Positions 23,054-27,669 of a stretch of DNA of 32,014 bases are shown here, in pieces. Source of the DNA: Candidatus Hydrothermarchaeales archaeon (GTDB lineage: Archaea; Hydrothermarchaeota; Hydrothermarchaeia; Hydrothermarchaeales; JAZGAD01). Positions within the stretch are counted from its first letter, which is position 1; each line of letters opens with the position of its first letter. Made by a program: the position numbers and the translations under genes. The stretch covers positions 1-32,014 of the forward strand of contig JAZGAD010000056.1 of the NCBI GenBank assembly GCA_036444275.1. The letters run 5' to 3'. The notes beneath the pieces were generated by a model. That model had not been told where the DNA came from. It was given only the letters and a program-made list of their open reading frames with translations, and made no database searches.

Positions 23054-23686
23054 TCACGCTTCTAACAGCGCCCCTATTATCAGCAACCCCACCACTAGGG
23101 CGTAGTACAATAGTTCCTTCCTTGCCTCTGTGTCTAGTTTCTTCCTGAATTCTCCTTCTGAGAAGACTGCCCTCTCTGCGATAGATAAGCCGATGCTCCC
23201 AGCGAGTAAGATGCCCGGAATCTCGAAGAAAGCATGCGGTAGGAGGTTGGCGAAATATGCCTCTAGGTTCTCACTATAGAGGATGAAGAAAGCACCAAGG
23301 ACGAATCCATTGAAGAAGAGGATGAAGATCGGGAAGGTATAGAGGGCGAGATAGTGTTTTACCCGCTCTATAGGCAGCCTCGCTATCTTTGCATCCAAGA
23401 GCCTAAGAATTCTAGCGACGGTGGAATGTGCACTGCTATCGAAGTGGAGGAATACCCTAGAAGTGAGATAACCGCCATATGCACACATGAAGGCGGCAAA
23501 AACATTATTCAAGCTTATTGAAAGAGCTGGATTACCTCCTAATACCTCTTTCTGCACCTCTGCCTTTTTGATTAAGAGGGCTAAGAAGGCATAGTATAAG
23601 GCCGGAAAAGAGAGAAGGAGTATGAAGCATATAATGACGCCAATGGTAAAGCCAAATAAATATATCTTAAAGCTTTTTTTGATCAT
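23054..23686 (-). CDS. SpoIIM (stage II sporulation protein M) family membrane protein
   Basis: ISLNN, FNGFVLG, LLPHAFFEIP, ALLEA. Multiple TM helices. Confidence 0.85.
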   Translation of the reverse strand: MIKKSFKIYLFGFTIGVIICFILLLSFPALYYAFLALLIKKAEVQKEVLGGNPALSISLNNVFAAFMCAYGGYLTSRVFLHFDSSAHSTVARILRLLDAKIARLPIERVKHYLALYTFPIFILFFNGFVLGAFFILYSENLEAYFANLLPHAFFEIPGILLAGSIGLSIAERAVFSEGEFRKKLDTEARKELLYYALVVGLLIIGALLEA

Positions 23687-24304
23687 TTACTTAGAGACCG
23701 TTACAGCCTCAGCAAATATCATGGTTCCCTGGATGCCATTGATCCTCGCCTTTACCTGCTGGCCGATCCTCGCATTGCTCACGAAGACGATGTATTTACC
23801 CAGTCTTGCGGTGCCGTCCCCCTTCTTCCCTATACCTGTAATATCCAGCGTGATCTCCTCTCCAATTTCTGGTTCTTTTGACTCTGCCTTGGGTATTGCC
23901 TTGGGAGCGCTCAATGCGTGCTTAGAGCCGCACGCCTCACATTTCAGAAAATGAATCCTCCCCTCTTTGATTATCTTAGTATCCGGCCTTCCGCACTCAC
24001 CACAGAGGACGAATTCCTTGACGAAGCCCTCGAATTTCTCCTGTGCCTGAGCCTGTCTAAATTGGCCTTTCAGAGTGAGGTGCTGCCCATTCTGAACGCC
24101 AGAGGTGCCGCATTCCATAATCAGGTGCTTCGCAACCATATCTGCGTCGCGACTTATGGCCTTACTGACCTCTCCAAGGTTCTGTATCACCGTAATCTTT
24201 CCTTGGATTATAGATTGCACCATAGGCATCTCGAACCTAGAATGCTCCTTCAGAACCGCTGGCAACTCGCTATATGCCTTTTCAAGTAGAGCTTCATATT
24301 TCGT
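23687..24304 (-). CDS. eif2b: Translation initiation factor aIF2 beta subunit with a C-terminal TRAM domain; inferred ACG start
   Basis: KYEALLEKAYSELP N-terminal helix, RFEMP, CGECGRPDT..CEACG Zn ribbon, TRAM motif GKKGDG. GGAGG lies 7 nt before ACG (24304-24302), with an in-frame TAG upstream. Confidence 0.92.
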   Translation of the reverse strand, partial: TKYEALLEKAYSELPAVLKEHSRFEMPMVQSIIQGKITVIQNLGEVSKAISRDADMVAKHLIMECGTSGVQNGQHLTLKGQFRQAQAQEKFEGFVKEFVLCGECGRPDTKIIKEGRIHFLKCEACGSKHALSAPKAIPKAESKEPEIGEEITLDITGIGKKGDGTARLGKYIVFVSNARIGQQVKARINGIQGTMIFAEAVTVSK

Positions 24305-24863
24305 TTTTCTTCCTCCGTCCTTGTAAGAGGCCTAGCTCACTTAGTGTATTATAGACGTTCTCAGCAGCCCTCTCAGCGTCCTCTACACTCTTCGCTCCAG
24401 TGCATACTATCTTGCCAGAACCGAAGAGGAGGAGCACCACCTTTGGGTCCTTCATTCTGTAGACTAATCCAGGGAACTGCTCAGGCTCATACTCTGTGTT
24501 GTCAAGCCCTACAGCAATAGCGTCCAAATTCAGCTCTGCCTCTAAATTTGCCGTAGCAACGACATTTTGAACTATTACCTCTGGTTTCTTGTCTATCTCG
24601 ACTCCCGACTCTTTTATCTTCTGTACTATCCGTTCTATAGCTAGTTTCGCCTCATCTATACTCTTCGCCCCTGTGCATACTATCTTGCCAGAACCGAAAA
24701 TCAGGGCCGCAGCCTTGGGCTCGTCTAAGTGGTATACCAATCCAGGGAACTGCTCAGGCTCATACTCCACTTTGTCCATGGCCACTGTTATGAGTCCAAG
24801 ATCGAACTTCTGTCCTAGTGAAGTAGAGGCGACTACATTTTCTACTTTTACCTTCCTAACCAT
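24294..24863 (-). CDS. tbp: TATA-box binding protein
   Basis: Two NVVA..YEPEQFPGLVY..FGSGKIVCTGAKS repeats. GGAGG SD before ATG 24863. Confidence 0.98.
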   Translation of the reverse strand: MVRKVKVENVVASTSLGQKFDLGLITVAMDKVEYEPEQFPGLVYHLDEPKAAALIFGSGKIVCTGAKSIDEAKLAIERIVQKIKESGVEIDKKPEVIVQNVVATANLEAELNLDAIAVGLDNTEYEPEQFPGLVYRMKDPKVVLLLFGSGKIVCTGAKSVEDAERAAENVYNTLSELGLLQGRRKKNEI

Positions 24864-24953
24864 AATCTGCCTCCAGTACTCTTTGAGATGGTATAGTTTT
24901 GTTTTAATAACATTAAACACCTAAAAGGATTTAAACGTTTATAAAGGATTTGC

Positions 24954-25187
24954 ATGAATAATACTGGAACGCATGACTTCAAAGTTGGCGACGAGCTGAA
25001 CCCGTACCTAGGCAAGCCGGTGCTAGTGAGGCTTAAAAATGGGAAGGAATTTAAAGGGCTTCTTAGGGGATTTGATGAGTACATCAACCTAGTGATCGAT
25101 GATGCCGAAGAAATAGGAACGCCAGGAAGACAGTTTGACACCCTTATATTCAAAGGAGGACTGGTAGGCTCTATTACCCCAGAATAA
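24954..25187 (+). CDS. Sm-like (Lsm/SmAP) RNA-binding protein
   Basis: Sm1 motif VLVRLKNGKEFKGLLRGFDEYINLVI and an Sm2-like LIFKGG. Confidence 0.9.
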   Translation: MNNTGTHDFKVGDELNPYLGKPVLVRLKNGKEFKGLLRGFDEYINLVIDDAEEIGTPGRQFDTLIFKGGLVGSITPE

Positions 25188-25348
25188 CGTTTATAATATC
25201 TCCTGCAGCTAAACCCTCCCTTTTGGGGCAGGCGGGACGCTACTTCCCACCTGCCAACGTCAACCCCGCTAGTTATTTATACTAGTAGGGCCAAATGCCA
25301 TGTTCTAACCCATAAATATCTTAGGGAGTTTATCAGCGAGGTGGTGAA

Positions 25349-25630
25349 ATGGCAGGAACTAAGGCAGATGACAACGTTGTTTTTGTTGGGAGAAAACCAG
25401 TCATGAACTATGTGCTAGCAGTGACCACACAGTTTAGTACCTCCAACGAGGTCATCATCAAGTCCAGGGGACAGGCGATAAGCAGGGCCGTTGATGCAGC
25501 TGAAATAGTCAGGCACAGATTCATGCCTGAGGTGAAAGTTAAGAGCATAAGCATCGATACCGAAGAAGTAACCAGGGAAGACGGCTCCAAAATGAACGTA
25601 TCTGCTATGGAGATAACCCTTAAGAAGTGA
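25349..25630 (+). CDS. albA: DNA/RNA-binding protein Alba
   Basis: [44 protein letters not shown]. Confidence 0.97.
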
Positions 25631-25633
25631 CGT

Positions 25634-26518
25634 CTAGTGCAAGATGGCACGCTGCTCCACTAGGCCTTTCGCCAATCCATAGCCAAATCTTTCTAGGGCT
25701 ACACCTACAAATTCCTCTAGGAAAGTGCCTTTTCGGTATTCCACAAGCGACGGCTCACCTTCTATGCCGCCTAATTGGGCAGCTTTTCTAATAGCGTAAT
25801 CCCTATTCCCAACTTCATCTACCAATCCAAGTTCCTTCGCTTTGCTACCGGTGTATATCTTTCCCTCGGCTACGCTCTTTAAATAGTCGAACGAGAGGTT
25901 CCTGTTCTCGGCGACATCGGATAGGAAAACATCATATGTCTCTAGAACAACGCTTTCCATCATCTCCTTCTCCTCATCGCTCATAGGTCTGAAGCCAGAG
26001 GAGAAATCCTTGAATTCCCCGGCCTTTATCACAGTGATATTCACCCCAATCTTTTCTAGAAACTTGGAATATTCCGGAAAGACAGAGATCACTCCAAGGC
26101 TGCCGGTTATCGTCGCCCTATCAGCTATGATGAAATCACATGCAGATGCCACATAGTAGCCACCTGAGGCTGCTATCTCACCCAGCCAGCACACAGTGGG
26201 TTTCTCCGCCTCCTTTATAGCCTCGGCTATCGCCGCGGATGCAACGACCGAGCCACCTGGGCTATTTATGTCTACAAGAATGGCCTTAACCGAGCTGTCC
26301 TTCTCGGCTTTCTTCAACCCCTCTTTGAACTTCTGTGGCGTTGCCTGGTCCCCCCCTAGAAATCCAGTGGCACCGGAGAGGGAAATGCCGCCATGGACGT
26401 TCACTACGGCTATCTTATCCCCAAAAGCGAAGCCCTGGTCATGTTTAGTAAGTAGGAATGCAAGAAGCAGGGAGACTACGAAGGCCCCCAGCAGAATTGT
26501 TAGGATGATTTTCTTCAT
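25634..26518 (-). CDS. sppA: Signal peptide peptidase SppA (36K type, S49)
   Basis: N-terminal TM helix, INSPGGS, AASGGYY, TGSLGV, KAGEFKD, GLVDEVG. Confidence 0.95.
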   Translation of the reverse strand: MKKIILTILLGAFVVSLLLAFLLTKHDQGFAFGDKIAVVNVHGGISLSGATGFLGGDQATPQKFKEGLKKAEKDSSVKAILVDINSPGGSVVASAAIAEAIKEAEKPTVCWLGEIAASGGYYVASACDFIIADRATITGSLGVISVFPEYSKFLEKIGVNITVIKAGEFKDFSSGFRPMSDEEKEMMESVVLETYDVFLSDVAENRNLSFDYLKSVAEGKIYTGSKAKELGLVDEVGNRDYAIRKAAQLGGIEGEPSLVEYRKGTFLEEFVGVALERFGYGLAKGLVEQRAILH

Positions 26519-26535
26519 GCCACACCGAAAAAGAA

Positions 26536-26543
26536 TATAAATA
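26536..26543 (+). promoter_or_regulatory. TATA box (with A-rich BRE) for the rps17e-dapA-dapB unit
   Basis: GAAAAAGAA-TATAAATA in the divergent sppA/rps17e gap. Confidence 0.5.
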
Positions 26544-26593
26544 CTCCCTTTATATATCTAGCGTTTAATGAAAAGTGAACAGGAGGCATCTAC

Positions 26594-26785
26594 ATAGGTA
26601 GGATACGACAGGGATACATCAAACGTACGGCACGTGAGATCGTTGAGAAGCATAGGGACGAGCTATCTACGGACTTCAAAGAGAGCAGGAAAGTCGTGGA
26701 CAAGTACGTCAAGGTGCAAGGCAAGTTTTTAAGGAATAGGATAGCCGGGTATGTAACACACCTACTCACACGGAAGGGTAGATAA
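26594..26785 (+). CDS. rps17e: 30S ribosomal protein S17e; inferred ATA start, absent from the ORF track
   Basis: (M)GRIRQGYIKRTAREIVEKH..STDFKESRKVV..KFLRNRIAGYVT. AGGAGG lies 7 nt before ATA, with an in-frame TGA at 26576. TAATG overlap with dapA. Confidence 0.93.
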   Translation: MGRIRQGYIKRTAREIVEKHRDELSTDFKESRKVVDKYVKVQGKFLRNRIAGYVTHLLTRKGR

Positions 26786-27669
26786 TGCTAGAAGGTTGCT
26801 TCACGGCAATAGTGACGCCGTTCTCGGGTAGTGGGGTAAAGGCACCCGTGGATTGGGATGCATTCAGCAAGCTGCTGTCCTTCCAGAAAGAGGGAGGTGT
26901 AACCGGCATTGTAGCATGTGGCACCACAGGGGAATCCCCTACACTCGCCCATGAAGAGCACAACAGAGTCATAGCGCTAACAGCTGAAGAATTCGACGGC
27001 ATCACGATAGCTGGTACCGGTTCTAATAGTACCTGGGAAGCTGTAGAGCTAACTAAACACGCCCAAGATGTCGGCTCAGATGCAACGCTGCAGGTATGCC
27101 CATATTATAACAAGCCAAATCAAGAGGGGCTCTACAGGCACTTCGCTGCTGTGGCAGAAGCCGTGGATATTCCAGTAATCCTCTACAATGTGCCCGGGAG
27201 AACAAGCCGGGAGATAGCACCAGAAACAATGGCCAGGCTCTCTGAAGAATACTCCAATGTAGTCGGAGTGAAAGAGGCCTCTGGAAAGGAGGAAAACTGG
27301 AAGGGTATTAGGGAAAAGTGCGGCGAAGATTTCCTGATCCTCGCTGGCAACGACGGCGACACGTACCGTTTGATGAAGGATTACGGCGCCAAAGGCGTTG
27401 TCTCTGTGGCCTCTAATGTTATCCCTAGACAGATCAGTGATCTTGTCGCCTTCGGTTTAAATGGTAGATTCGAAGAGATGGAAAAAGAAGTCAATCACCT
27501 GGATGAATTCTTTAAAGCCCTCTTCATAGACACTAACCCAATACCTGTCAAGGAAGCCATGAACCTACGTGGGATTAACGCTGGGAATTACCGGCTTCCC
27601 CTTTGCGAGCTGAGCATGGATAAGAGGGATAGATTAAAGGAAGTGCTAGATAGATTGGGTTCTCTCTGA
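26785..27669 (+). CDS. dapA: 4-hydroxy-tetrahydrodipicolinate synthase
   Basis: TAIVTPF, GTTGESPTL, PYYNKP, YNVPGRT, GVKEASG, TNPIPVK. Confidence 0.97.
   Translation: MLEGCFTAIVTPFSGSGVKAPVDWDAFSKLLSFQKEGGVTGIVACGTTGESPTLAHEEHNRVIALTAEEFDGITIAGTGSNSTWEAVELTKHAQDVGSDATLQVCPYYNKPNQEGLYRHFAAVAEAVDIPVILYNVPGRTSREIAPETMARLSEEYSNVVGVKEASGKEENWKGIREKCGEDFLILAGNDGDTYRLMKDYGAKGVVSVASNVIPRQISDLVAFGLNGRFEEMEKEVNHLDEFFKALFIDTNPIPVKEAMNLRGINAGNYRLPLCELSMDKRDRLKEVLDRLGSL

Follow-up and report, generated by a model that had tools for sequence, protein, structure and literature searches.

Probable near-cognate start codons behind strong Shine-Dalgarno sequences at aIF2-beta, rps17e and other genes of the archaeal order Hydrothermarchaeales

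Initiation at weak codons led by a Shine-Dalgarno (SD) sequence is known from bacteria: Escherichia coli infC, which encodes IF3, and pcnB start with AUU, and translation table 11 includes ATT, ATC, ATA and CTG. In eukaryotes near-cognate starts (CUG, GUG, ACG and others) are policed by eIF1, which controls its own synthesis through a poor start context. ACG is, to our knowledge, not among the starts of NCBI table 11. Here we describe two genes of a Hydrothermarchaeales archaeon, encoding translation factor aIF2-beta and ribosomal protein eS17 (rps17e), which probably start at ACG and ATA, respectively, each at the same short distance behind a GGAGG. Comparison with related genomes makes it probable that SD-assisted near-cognate starts of this kind are a trait of the order. 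The window is the whole stretch of 32,014 nt analysed, contig C56 of the metagenome-assembled genome (MAG) G000, which comprises 1.49 Mb in 61 contigs with 46.5% G+C and is 81% complete.

The role of eIF1 in eukaryotic start selection is treated in PMC6237735, and a review gives AUG, GUG and UUG as the archaeal start codons (PMC7531240). A “rare ATT start codon”, preceded by a plausible ribosome binding site (RBS), has been proposed for a tubulin gene of an Asgard archaeon (PMC13394414). Apart from this ATT we found no account of conserved AUA, AUU, AUC or ACG starts in archaea in the literature outside subscription journals, and nothing there on start codons in Hydrothermarchaeota.

The present cases resemble infC and pcnB in that a near-cognate codon occupies the conserved Met1, the initiator tRNA is normal, the SD is apparently needed and orthologues keep the weak codon. 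They differ in that the archaeal factors are aIF1, aIF1A and aIF2 and not IF3, and in that several unrelated genes are involved; unlike in bacterial table 11, ACG recurs (10 of 29 oapC loci). Eukaryotic initiation shares with them the homologous factors e/aIF1 and e/aIF2, the use of ACG and AUH codons at reduced fidelity and the compensation by a favourable context. In contrast to eukaryotes, neither scanning nor a Kozak context is involved, the compensating element would be an SD duplex at a fixed distance, and the aIF1 gene itself starts with ATG in all 30 genomes. As in the Asgard tubulin (PMC13394414), the conserved N-terminus is recovered only from the unusual codon, behind an RBS at plausible distance. 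The tubulin is a single gene of one MAG reported in a methods section, whereas here the codon is kept over an order in several families.

The two genes and the elements around their starts are located as follows:
23687..24304, minus strand: aIF2-beta gene of 205 codons plus stop when read from the ACG, with a TRAM domain at the C-terminus (translation, Pfam)
24304-24302, minus strand: ACG at which aIF2-beta is proposed to start; no canonical codon lies ahead of the conserved YEALLEKAY
24316-24312, minus strand: SD sequence GGAGG of aIF2-beta, inside the TBP coding region, 7 nt (AAGAAAA) before the ACG
24265-24263, minus strand: TTG picked by gene callers for aIF2-beta, the L of the conserved ..ELP, which would cut the N-terminal motif
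24294..24863, minus strand: TBP gene (Pfam TBP), stop at 24296-24294
24297-24295, minus strand: out-of-frame ATG overlapping the TBP stop (ATGA), opening a 15-codon frame
26594..26785, plus strand: rps17e (eS17), read from ATA, 63 codons plus stop (Pfam PF00833, translation)
26576-26578, plus strand: in-frame TGA that bounds the rps17e frame on its 5’ side, 5 codons ahead of the ATA
26582-26586, plus strand: SD sequence GGAGG of rps17e, 7 nt (CATCTAC) before the ATA
26594-26596, plus strand: ATA, proposed start codon of rps17e, preceded by T G G I Y; ATA GGT AGG ATA CGA reads (M)GRIR

We took ATG, GTG and TTG as canonical starts and ATA, ATT, ATC and ACG at the position of Met1 as near-cognate. 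The original prediction that an ACG in aIF2-beta and an ATA in rps17e each follow a GGAGG at 7 nt was borne out, and no earlier canonical start precedes the conserved N-termini. The 3’ end of the 16S rRNA in G000 reads ..GGATCACCTCCT, with the anti-SD tail also given by ..CACCUCCU and ..CACCTCCT, and GGAGG therefore pairs with it perfectly. A distance of 7 nt is the modal spacing between GGAGG and ATG in G000, as determined for every SD-complement 5-mer and the first ATG of long open reading frames (ORFs). GGAGG occurs at a frequency of 0.0015 per position (4588 sites on both strands); the probability that both exact placements arise by chance is about 2e-6.

The aIF2-beta frame reads ASYKDGGRK-T-KYEALLEKAYSELP after a TAG at 24334-24332, and its earliest ATG, GTG or TTG is the TTG at 24265-24263, 13 codons past the ACG. 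The G000 database entry (P0001, 192 aa) begins at this TTG as MPAVLKEH. Residues 19-128 of the product match PF01873 (eIF-5_eIF-2B) and residues 146-201 match PF01938 (TRAM). Each gene was searched for in 40 relatives, with no more than 30 loci used per search, and the codon that aligns with the conserved N-terminus was recorded. Orthologues of aIF2-beta, 52-67% identical, were found at loci of 29 relatives, and a canonical codon is located 1-6 codons before YE..LL in 28 of these. The ACG aligns exactly with Met1 of the proteins P0004, P0006 and P0009 (MKYEA..), the start position in other relatives being shifted by 1-5 codons. In the sister genus (G001) the gene begins ATG GAC TAT GAA. The 3’ end of TBP overlaps the aIF2-beta start by 11 nt, with the ACG 8 nt before the TBP stop.

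Several observations touch the aIF2-beta gene and its neighbour. The TBP gene of G000 lacks the stop that relatives have after ..LGLL (TTA CAA GGA vs TTA TAA or TAG) and is 10 codons longer than theirs (24294-24326, minus strand), running through the aIF2-beta SD and start codon. Logan contigs from four further runs (X1-X4) were aligned to 23600-26900; the X4 contig, about 91% identical, is without one base at 24318, inside the overlap of TBP and aIF2-beta. No canonical codon precedes EYGELL in the aIF2-beta of G006 (L024, C18, ~1485-1545), where the TBP stop TAA is directly followed by CTG GAT AAG AAC GAA TAT GGT GAA TTG... This gene may start at the TTG inside the motif, which has GGTGA at the right distance, and it was left out of the near-cognate cases; in the database clusters of the G006 type (P0063, P0064, P0066, P0068 and P0070, 192 aa) the called start is the TTG of ELP further downstream. 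Both Pfam domains are present in 81 of the 82 database relatives of aIF2-beta at E<=1e-40, and homologues from Thermococcus and other archaea align to residues 3-132 only. The combination of aIF2-beta with TRAM (23687-24130, minus strand) appears to be a lineage-specific fusion; TRAM domains are RNA-binding modules.

For rps17e the frame following the ATA reads GRIRQGYIKRTA.., residues 2-60 fall on positions 2-60 of the Ribosomal_S17e profile PF00833, and the next canonical codon is 34 codons away. Orthologues were found in 34 of the 40 relatives. At 30 loci including that of G000 the Met1 codon is TTG (18), ATG (7), GTG (1), ATA (3) or ATC (1), so that 4 of 30 are near-cognate and 26 of the 29 relatives have ATG, TTG or GTG at the codon aligned with the G000 ATA. 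ATA occurs in G000, G002 and G023, ATC in G019 and GTG, after an ATT, in G013; in the sister genus (G001) the codon is ATG. All three sampled genomes of genus g3, which belongs to a different family from G000, carry a near-cognate codon (ATA, ATA, ATC). The rps17e ATA therefore recurs in independent assemblies, and the aIF2-beta ACG does not. GGAGG(T) is found at the same distance in most of the relatives’ loci, with weaker SD-like variants in a few, e.g. GGAAGGTG, GAGGTG or GGAGAT.

Both starts had been described as overlapping an upstream ORF. This holds for aIF2-beta, which overlaps TBP, and not for rps17e, which has no same-strand upstream gene and is separated from its divergent neighbour by 75 nt; only its stop codon overlaps another gene, at the ATG of dapA:
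25634..26518, minus strand: sppA (peptidase S49; ORF, Pfam), divergent from rps17e
26785..27669, plus strand: dapA, its ATG sharing one base with the rps17e stop (TAATG)
The 75-nt spacer between sppA and rps17e contains TATA-like runs. Within it, the X1 and X3 contigs have an added T at 26558 and a missing base at 26568 in common.

To extend the comparison to the genome, stop-to-stop frames of at least 35 codons from ~1.31 Mb of G004 were compared with G000 by blastp. This gave 1011 best-frame pairs, with 982 G000 frames away from contig ends. An ORF was flagged if its alignment began 3 or more residues ahead of the first canonical codon; this applied to 175 G000 ORFs, which were sorted by eye. 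Besides the two window genes, three further near-cognate starts were found in G000:
C39:12306: rpoE’ (Rpb7-like), ATA directly before FKLVVLKDLVRVPP, AGGAGG 8 nt upstream
C14:3845: PRS2-type AAA ATPase, ATC 7 nt after GGAGG, earliest canonical codon 103 codons into the frame
C12:33042, minus strand: DUF61 gene, ATA 7 nt after GGAGG
About 0.5% of the comparable G000 genes are thus affected. In G004, the prefoldin beta gene has an ATA aligned exactly with the ATG of G000 and a GGAGG 7 nt upstream, and oapC starts with ATC. The genome-wide check of Met1 proposed with the original prediction hence turned up other cases in G000, in G004 and in their relatives. A census anchored on the SD took in non-canonical codons that follow an SD of 5 nt or more at 6-8 nt and have no canonical codon in their vicinity, or in frame as far as the start of the alignment. 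In G000, 7 of 14 such codons were near-cognate compared to a background of 18.5% (P=0.007). These seven, counted here with AAG as near-cognate, are ATA (3), ATC, ATT, ACG and AAG (1 each).

Other flagged frames were set aside. They include frames over the rRNA operon (C6 vs L207) and antisense shadow frames (such as C11:5149, C9:18240, C19, C10:375, C29:107, C13). At a HicA-like gene (C12:31992), a hemC-like gene (C53), EF-1alpha (C28), a leuA-like gene (C10) and others, the upstream similarity comes from a conserved promoter, 5’ leader or overlapping gene, and a canonical start is present. MetRS, uS14, C23 and C12:92835 have canonical codons nearby. C37:2002 and C30:16055 remained ambiguous after sorting.

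Across the order the same genes show near-cognate codons repeatedly. For rpoE’ these occupy Met1 in 27 of 35 genomes of the order and class, the codons being ATA (19), ATT (4), ATC (3), ACG (1), ATG (2), GTG (2), TTG (3) and one unclear (G004); in three outgroup genomes the codons are TTG, TTG and ATG. The AAA ATPase has a near-cognate Met1 in 31 of 33 genomes (ATA 14, ATT 10, ATC 4, ACG 3, ATG 2), leaving out one locus cut by a contig end and two not aligned at the N-terminus; all three ACG codons belong to genus g12. For oapC, with one contig-edge locus left out, the fraction is 11 of 29 (ATG 14, ACG 10, TTG 3, GTG 1, ATC 1). Its ACG is found in 3 of 3 sampled genomes of family f6, in 5 of 5 of genus g18 and in two of genus g12. 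In six genomes this ACG stands 1-3 codons after an in-frame stop and directly before PHKCT.C, so that no other start is possible. ACG is thus fixed in whole genera at genes other than aIF2-beta (oapC, AAA ATPase). Prefoldin beta has ATA in 4 of 30 genomes from two families (G004 and G012; G007 and G015), each time with AAGGAGG at the usual distance. For DUF61 G000 alone is non-canonical among 26 genomes. As controls, aIF1 has ATG in 30 of 30 genomes, and a canonical start is available in 73 of 73 cases for TBP (20/20), SppA (17/17), DapA (28/28), Alba (7/7) and LSm (1/1). With the three further G000 cases, these counts speak for the predicted use of SD-compensated non-AUG initiation by the lineage.

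Gene callers miss such starts, as had been anticipated: aIF2-beta is called from the TTG (P0001), and many RpoE’ proteins are truncated or extended. Among 120 RpoE’ homologues in the database many begin inside the protein (MEDLVRVPP.., MRVPP..; MKDLVRVPP in P0083 of G000), and others begin at an upstream TTG within the SD (LVKIFKLV..). MF(K/R)L.. is the N-terminus of four NCBI entries, and GTDB loci with matching N-terminal residues read ATA, so that the NCBI pipeline seems to accept ATA for rpoE’ already, without comment. Common gene callers would systematically truncate, extend or lose the genes concerned; rps17e would be missed altogether, and marker-gene completeness scores would be distorted. 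Conserved genes that are “missing” or “short” in MAGs of this group may therefore be annotation artefacts. The rpoE’ frame of G000 is itself unusual in length: it comprises 263 codons (C39:12306-13094; L236:507-1295), the matches in relatives reach a stop after ~200-220 residues, and Pfam covers the G000 frame only to residue ~164. The tail may reflect read-through or a fusion with the next gene.

We also inspected the initiation machinery. G000 has one tRNA (C53:77825-77900) which we take to be the initiator from its A1:U72 pair and its GGG/CCC anticodon stem; it carries the anticodon CAU. Two further CAU tRNAs are of the elongator type, and neither a changed anticodon nor a second initiator tRNA was found in this MAG, which is 81% complete. 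The initiator tRNA, which had been suggested as a possible site of change, is thus of the standard kind. For aIF1, named as another such site, the start codon is unaltered and loop 1 of the protein shows one private residue. The gene (C28:47349-47651) starts with ATG, and residues 3-101 align with the M. jannaschii protein of PDB 4mo0. The basic loop 1 reads KR-T-FGK in G000 (Thr 34, ACC; C28:47448-47450, L369:1534-1536) compared to (K/R)R-K-FGK in 29 of 29 relatives, RRRFGK in an outgroup, KRRFGK in 4mo0 and RYGK in 5zcy. In P. abyssi aIF1, R31 contributes to 30S binding together with K34 (PMC6237735). Thr 34 aligns with the Arg of the RYGK motif of 5zcy, and from this motif, rather than the P. 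abyssi sequence itself, we infer that it may match this R31. A tie between Thr 34 and the three near-cognate starts private to G000 is a lead only.

Initiation at these codons could proceed as follows. The 3’ end of the 16S rRNA would pair with the GGAGG and set the P site 7 nt downstream, where the ordinary initiator tRNA (CAU) would pair with two of three bases, with a third-base mismatch at AUA and a middle-base mismatch at ACG. A strong, optimally spaced SD may offset the weak codon, the stable duplex letting the complex through aIF1 proofreading at a reduced rate. Terminating ribosomes may add initiation events, at aIF2-beta from TBP and at oapC from the stop directly before the ACG. From the sequences we infer decoding of these codons as Met by the initiator tRNA, lowered output and some help from coupling. 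The ATA of rps17e, relative to the sister genus, and the ACG of aIF2-beta, relative to the MKYEA-type relatives, would each be a recent single transition from ATG. Since the start machinery already accepts such codons, it would tolerate these transitions, and recent tolerated transitions are the simpler reading for rps17e, aIF2-beta and DUF61 in G000. The weak codons kept order-wide in rpoE’ and the AAA ATPase suggest selection for low or conditional output. To judge from PMC7531240, the rps17e product lies near the element on which its own weak start would depend. An order in which such codons are fixed for particular genes would lend itself to studying how aIF1 and aIF2 balance the strength of the SD and that of the codon.

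A number of points weigh against reading the two codons as genuine starts and the habit as one of the lineage. The ACG is private to G000, as 28 of the 29 relatives’ loci and the sister genus (G001) are canonical. The closest database aIF2-beta, P0002 (85% identical), starts MDKYEALLEKAY, i.e. MDKYEA; scans of metagenome and genome contigs gave no aIF2-beta relative above 68% identity. The letters at 24302-24304 and 26594-26596 were read in the G000 assembly. The relatives are kin, so that the Met1 counts overstate the number of independent events; some AAA ATPase and oapC loci were counted without excluding an upstream in-frame canonical codon, and the AAA ATPase of G004 has a GTG 6 codons upstream of its start. 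The 73 of 73 control follows a laxer criterion (a canonical codon being available) than the test genes, and the genome-wide list rests on manual sorting. No excess was observed in the SD-anchored census of G004 (1 of 15 near-cognate). A crude homology-free count anchored on the SD showed no enrichment in G000, with 101 near-cognates against ~117 expected; as GGAGG is common inside genes and codons beside canonical starts swamp the signal, this count was replaced by the comparison of G000 with G004.

A base-call error or minority variant at one or both codons, with ATG as the true codon of the organism, is unlikely, though; aIF2-beta, where ACG is unique to G000, would be the likeliest place for it. 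Each codon is one transition away from ATG, both genes have ATG in the sister genus, and both codons are read in a MAG of 61 contigs and 81% completeness. Against this stands the small number of broken genes in G000. Of 894 G004 frames with G000 partners nine were matched by two adjacent G000 frames, and ~4-5 of these look like real disruptions, one in-frame stop and three frameshifts, the remainder being rRNA shadow frames or tandem paralogues; a first count of 120 “splits”, dominated by shadow frames, was discarded. If a gene is assumed to be ~900 nt long and ~4% of substitutions to create a stop, a rough bound puts the probability that three of 982 start codons were hit privately at ~0.01-0.02, which agrees with the earlier argument that random errors are unlikely. 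The X1 contig (23603-24772, 1170 nt, 7 differences, 0 gaps) spans the ACG, and the X2 contig (24188-24338) shows 4 differences and no gap; among the differences listed for the two, none falls at 24302-24304, though rows of weaker support appear. The same codons are, moreover, fixed in other genomes at other genes. We consider it quite unlikely that aIF2-beta is started elsewhere than at the ACG, be it at the TTG at 24265, at the ATG at 24297-24295 followed by a change of frame (a programmed shift or a 1-nt assembly deletion), or by codon-independent re-initiation after TBP. Gene callers do choose the TTG (P0001), and in G006 the start may be a TTG within the motif, suitably spaced from a GGTGA; ATGA overlaps are a common coupling arrangement, and one extra G after the ATG would give MEALLEKAY. 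However, the TTG at 24265 has no SD and would delete YEALLEKAYSE, conserved in 29 of 29 relatives and presumably the helix that binds aIF2-gamma. The ATG is 14 nt from the GGAGG, the absence of gaps in X1 and X2 argues against a 1-nt deletion after it, and an added base would lengthen TBP by 15 more codons. The ACG, in contrast, has precisely the modal spacing and coincides with the position of Met1.

The original prediction had also seen in these starts a regulatory layer for the translation machinery, which could take the form of an autoregulatory loop between aIF2-beta and start stringency like that of IF3 and the AUU of infC. It is true that two of the five G000 cases are translation genes and that in 22 of 30 genomes rps17e combines a weak start (TTG, ATA or ATC) with a strong SD. 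The conserved near-cognate cases, however, are not translation genes; they encode a subunit of the transcription machinery, an AAA ATPase, a zinc-ribbon protein associated with the origin and a subunit of a chaperone. The ACG of aIF2-beta occurs in 1 of 30 genomes (31 with G001), the gene being canonical in 29 of 30 relatives. Among the 1011 pairs no further gene for a ribosomal protein or a factor was flagged, uS14 having GTG, and two of five is not significant if about a tenth of the genes, as we presume, serve translation. A weak codon conserved in the gene of the factor itself, as in infC, was not observed (aIF2-beta is canonical in 28 of 29 loci and in G001; aIF1 has ATG in 30 of 30), and no special link of near-cognate starts to translation genes was found in the 1011-pair comparison or among the relatives. 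A dedicated layer is thus very unlikely. As several unrelated genes are affected across the order, near-cognate initiation appears to be a general habit of the lineage rather than a control reserved for translation genes. A bolder extension, to us rather unlikely, is that the start-codon check of Hydrothermarchaeia is relaxed or tunable: rpoE’, the PRS2-type AAA ATPase and, in several families, oapC would deliberately carry AUH or ACG codons after a perfect SD, with output tracking aIF1/aIF2 stringency, and G000 would have loosened the check further through the Thr of aIF1. If true, this would be an archaeal counterpart of the infC and eIF1 circuits acting on a small regulon, and the looser check in G000 would explain how three more genes, aIF2-beta among them, slipped to ATA or ACG.

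The disruptions detected in G000 are located as follows (minus-strand coordinates refer to the reverse complement). Apparent frameshifts split conserved genes at C10, plus strand, 46755/47386, at C53, minus strand, 60346/60714 and at C53, minus strand, 62386/62939; the in-frame stop splits a gene at C15, minus strand, 1051/1432. Between 23.0 and 28.5 kb of the window the genes are arranged in this order:
minus strand: SpoIIM-like membrane protein, aIF2-beta, TBP
plus strand: LSm, Alba
minus strand: SppA
plus strand: rps17e, dapA, dapB
Elsewhere in G000 an 80-codon frame (C12:17031-17273) shares 70% identity with a G004 gene whose first codons are ATG GTA GCT AAA GCT GAG. It has no canonical codon before the conserved part (the first TTG is codon 34), no SD and no Pfam match. 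With a second copy present on C29, this frame may be a decaying copy.

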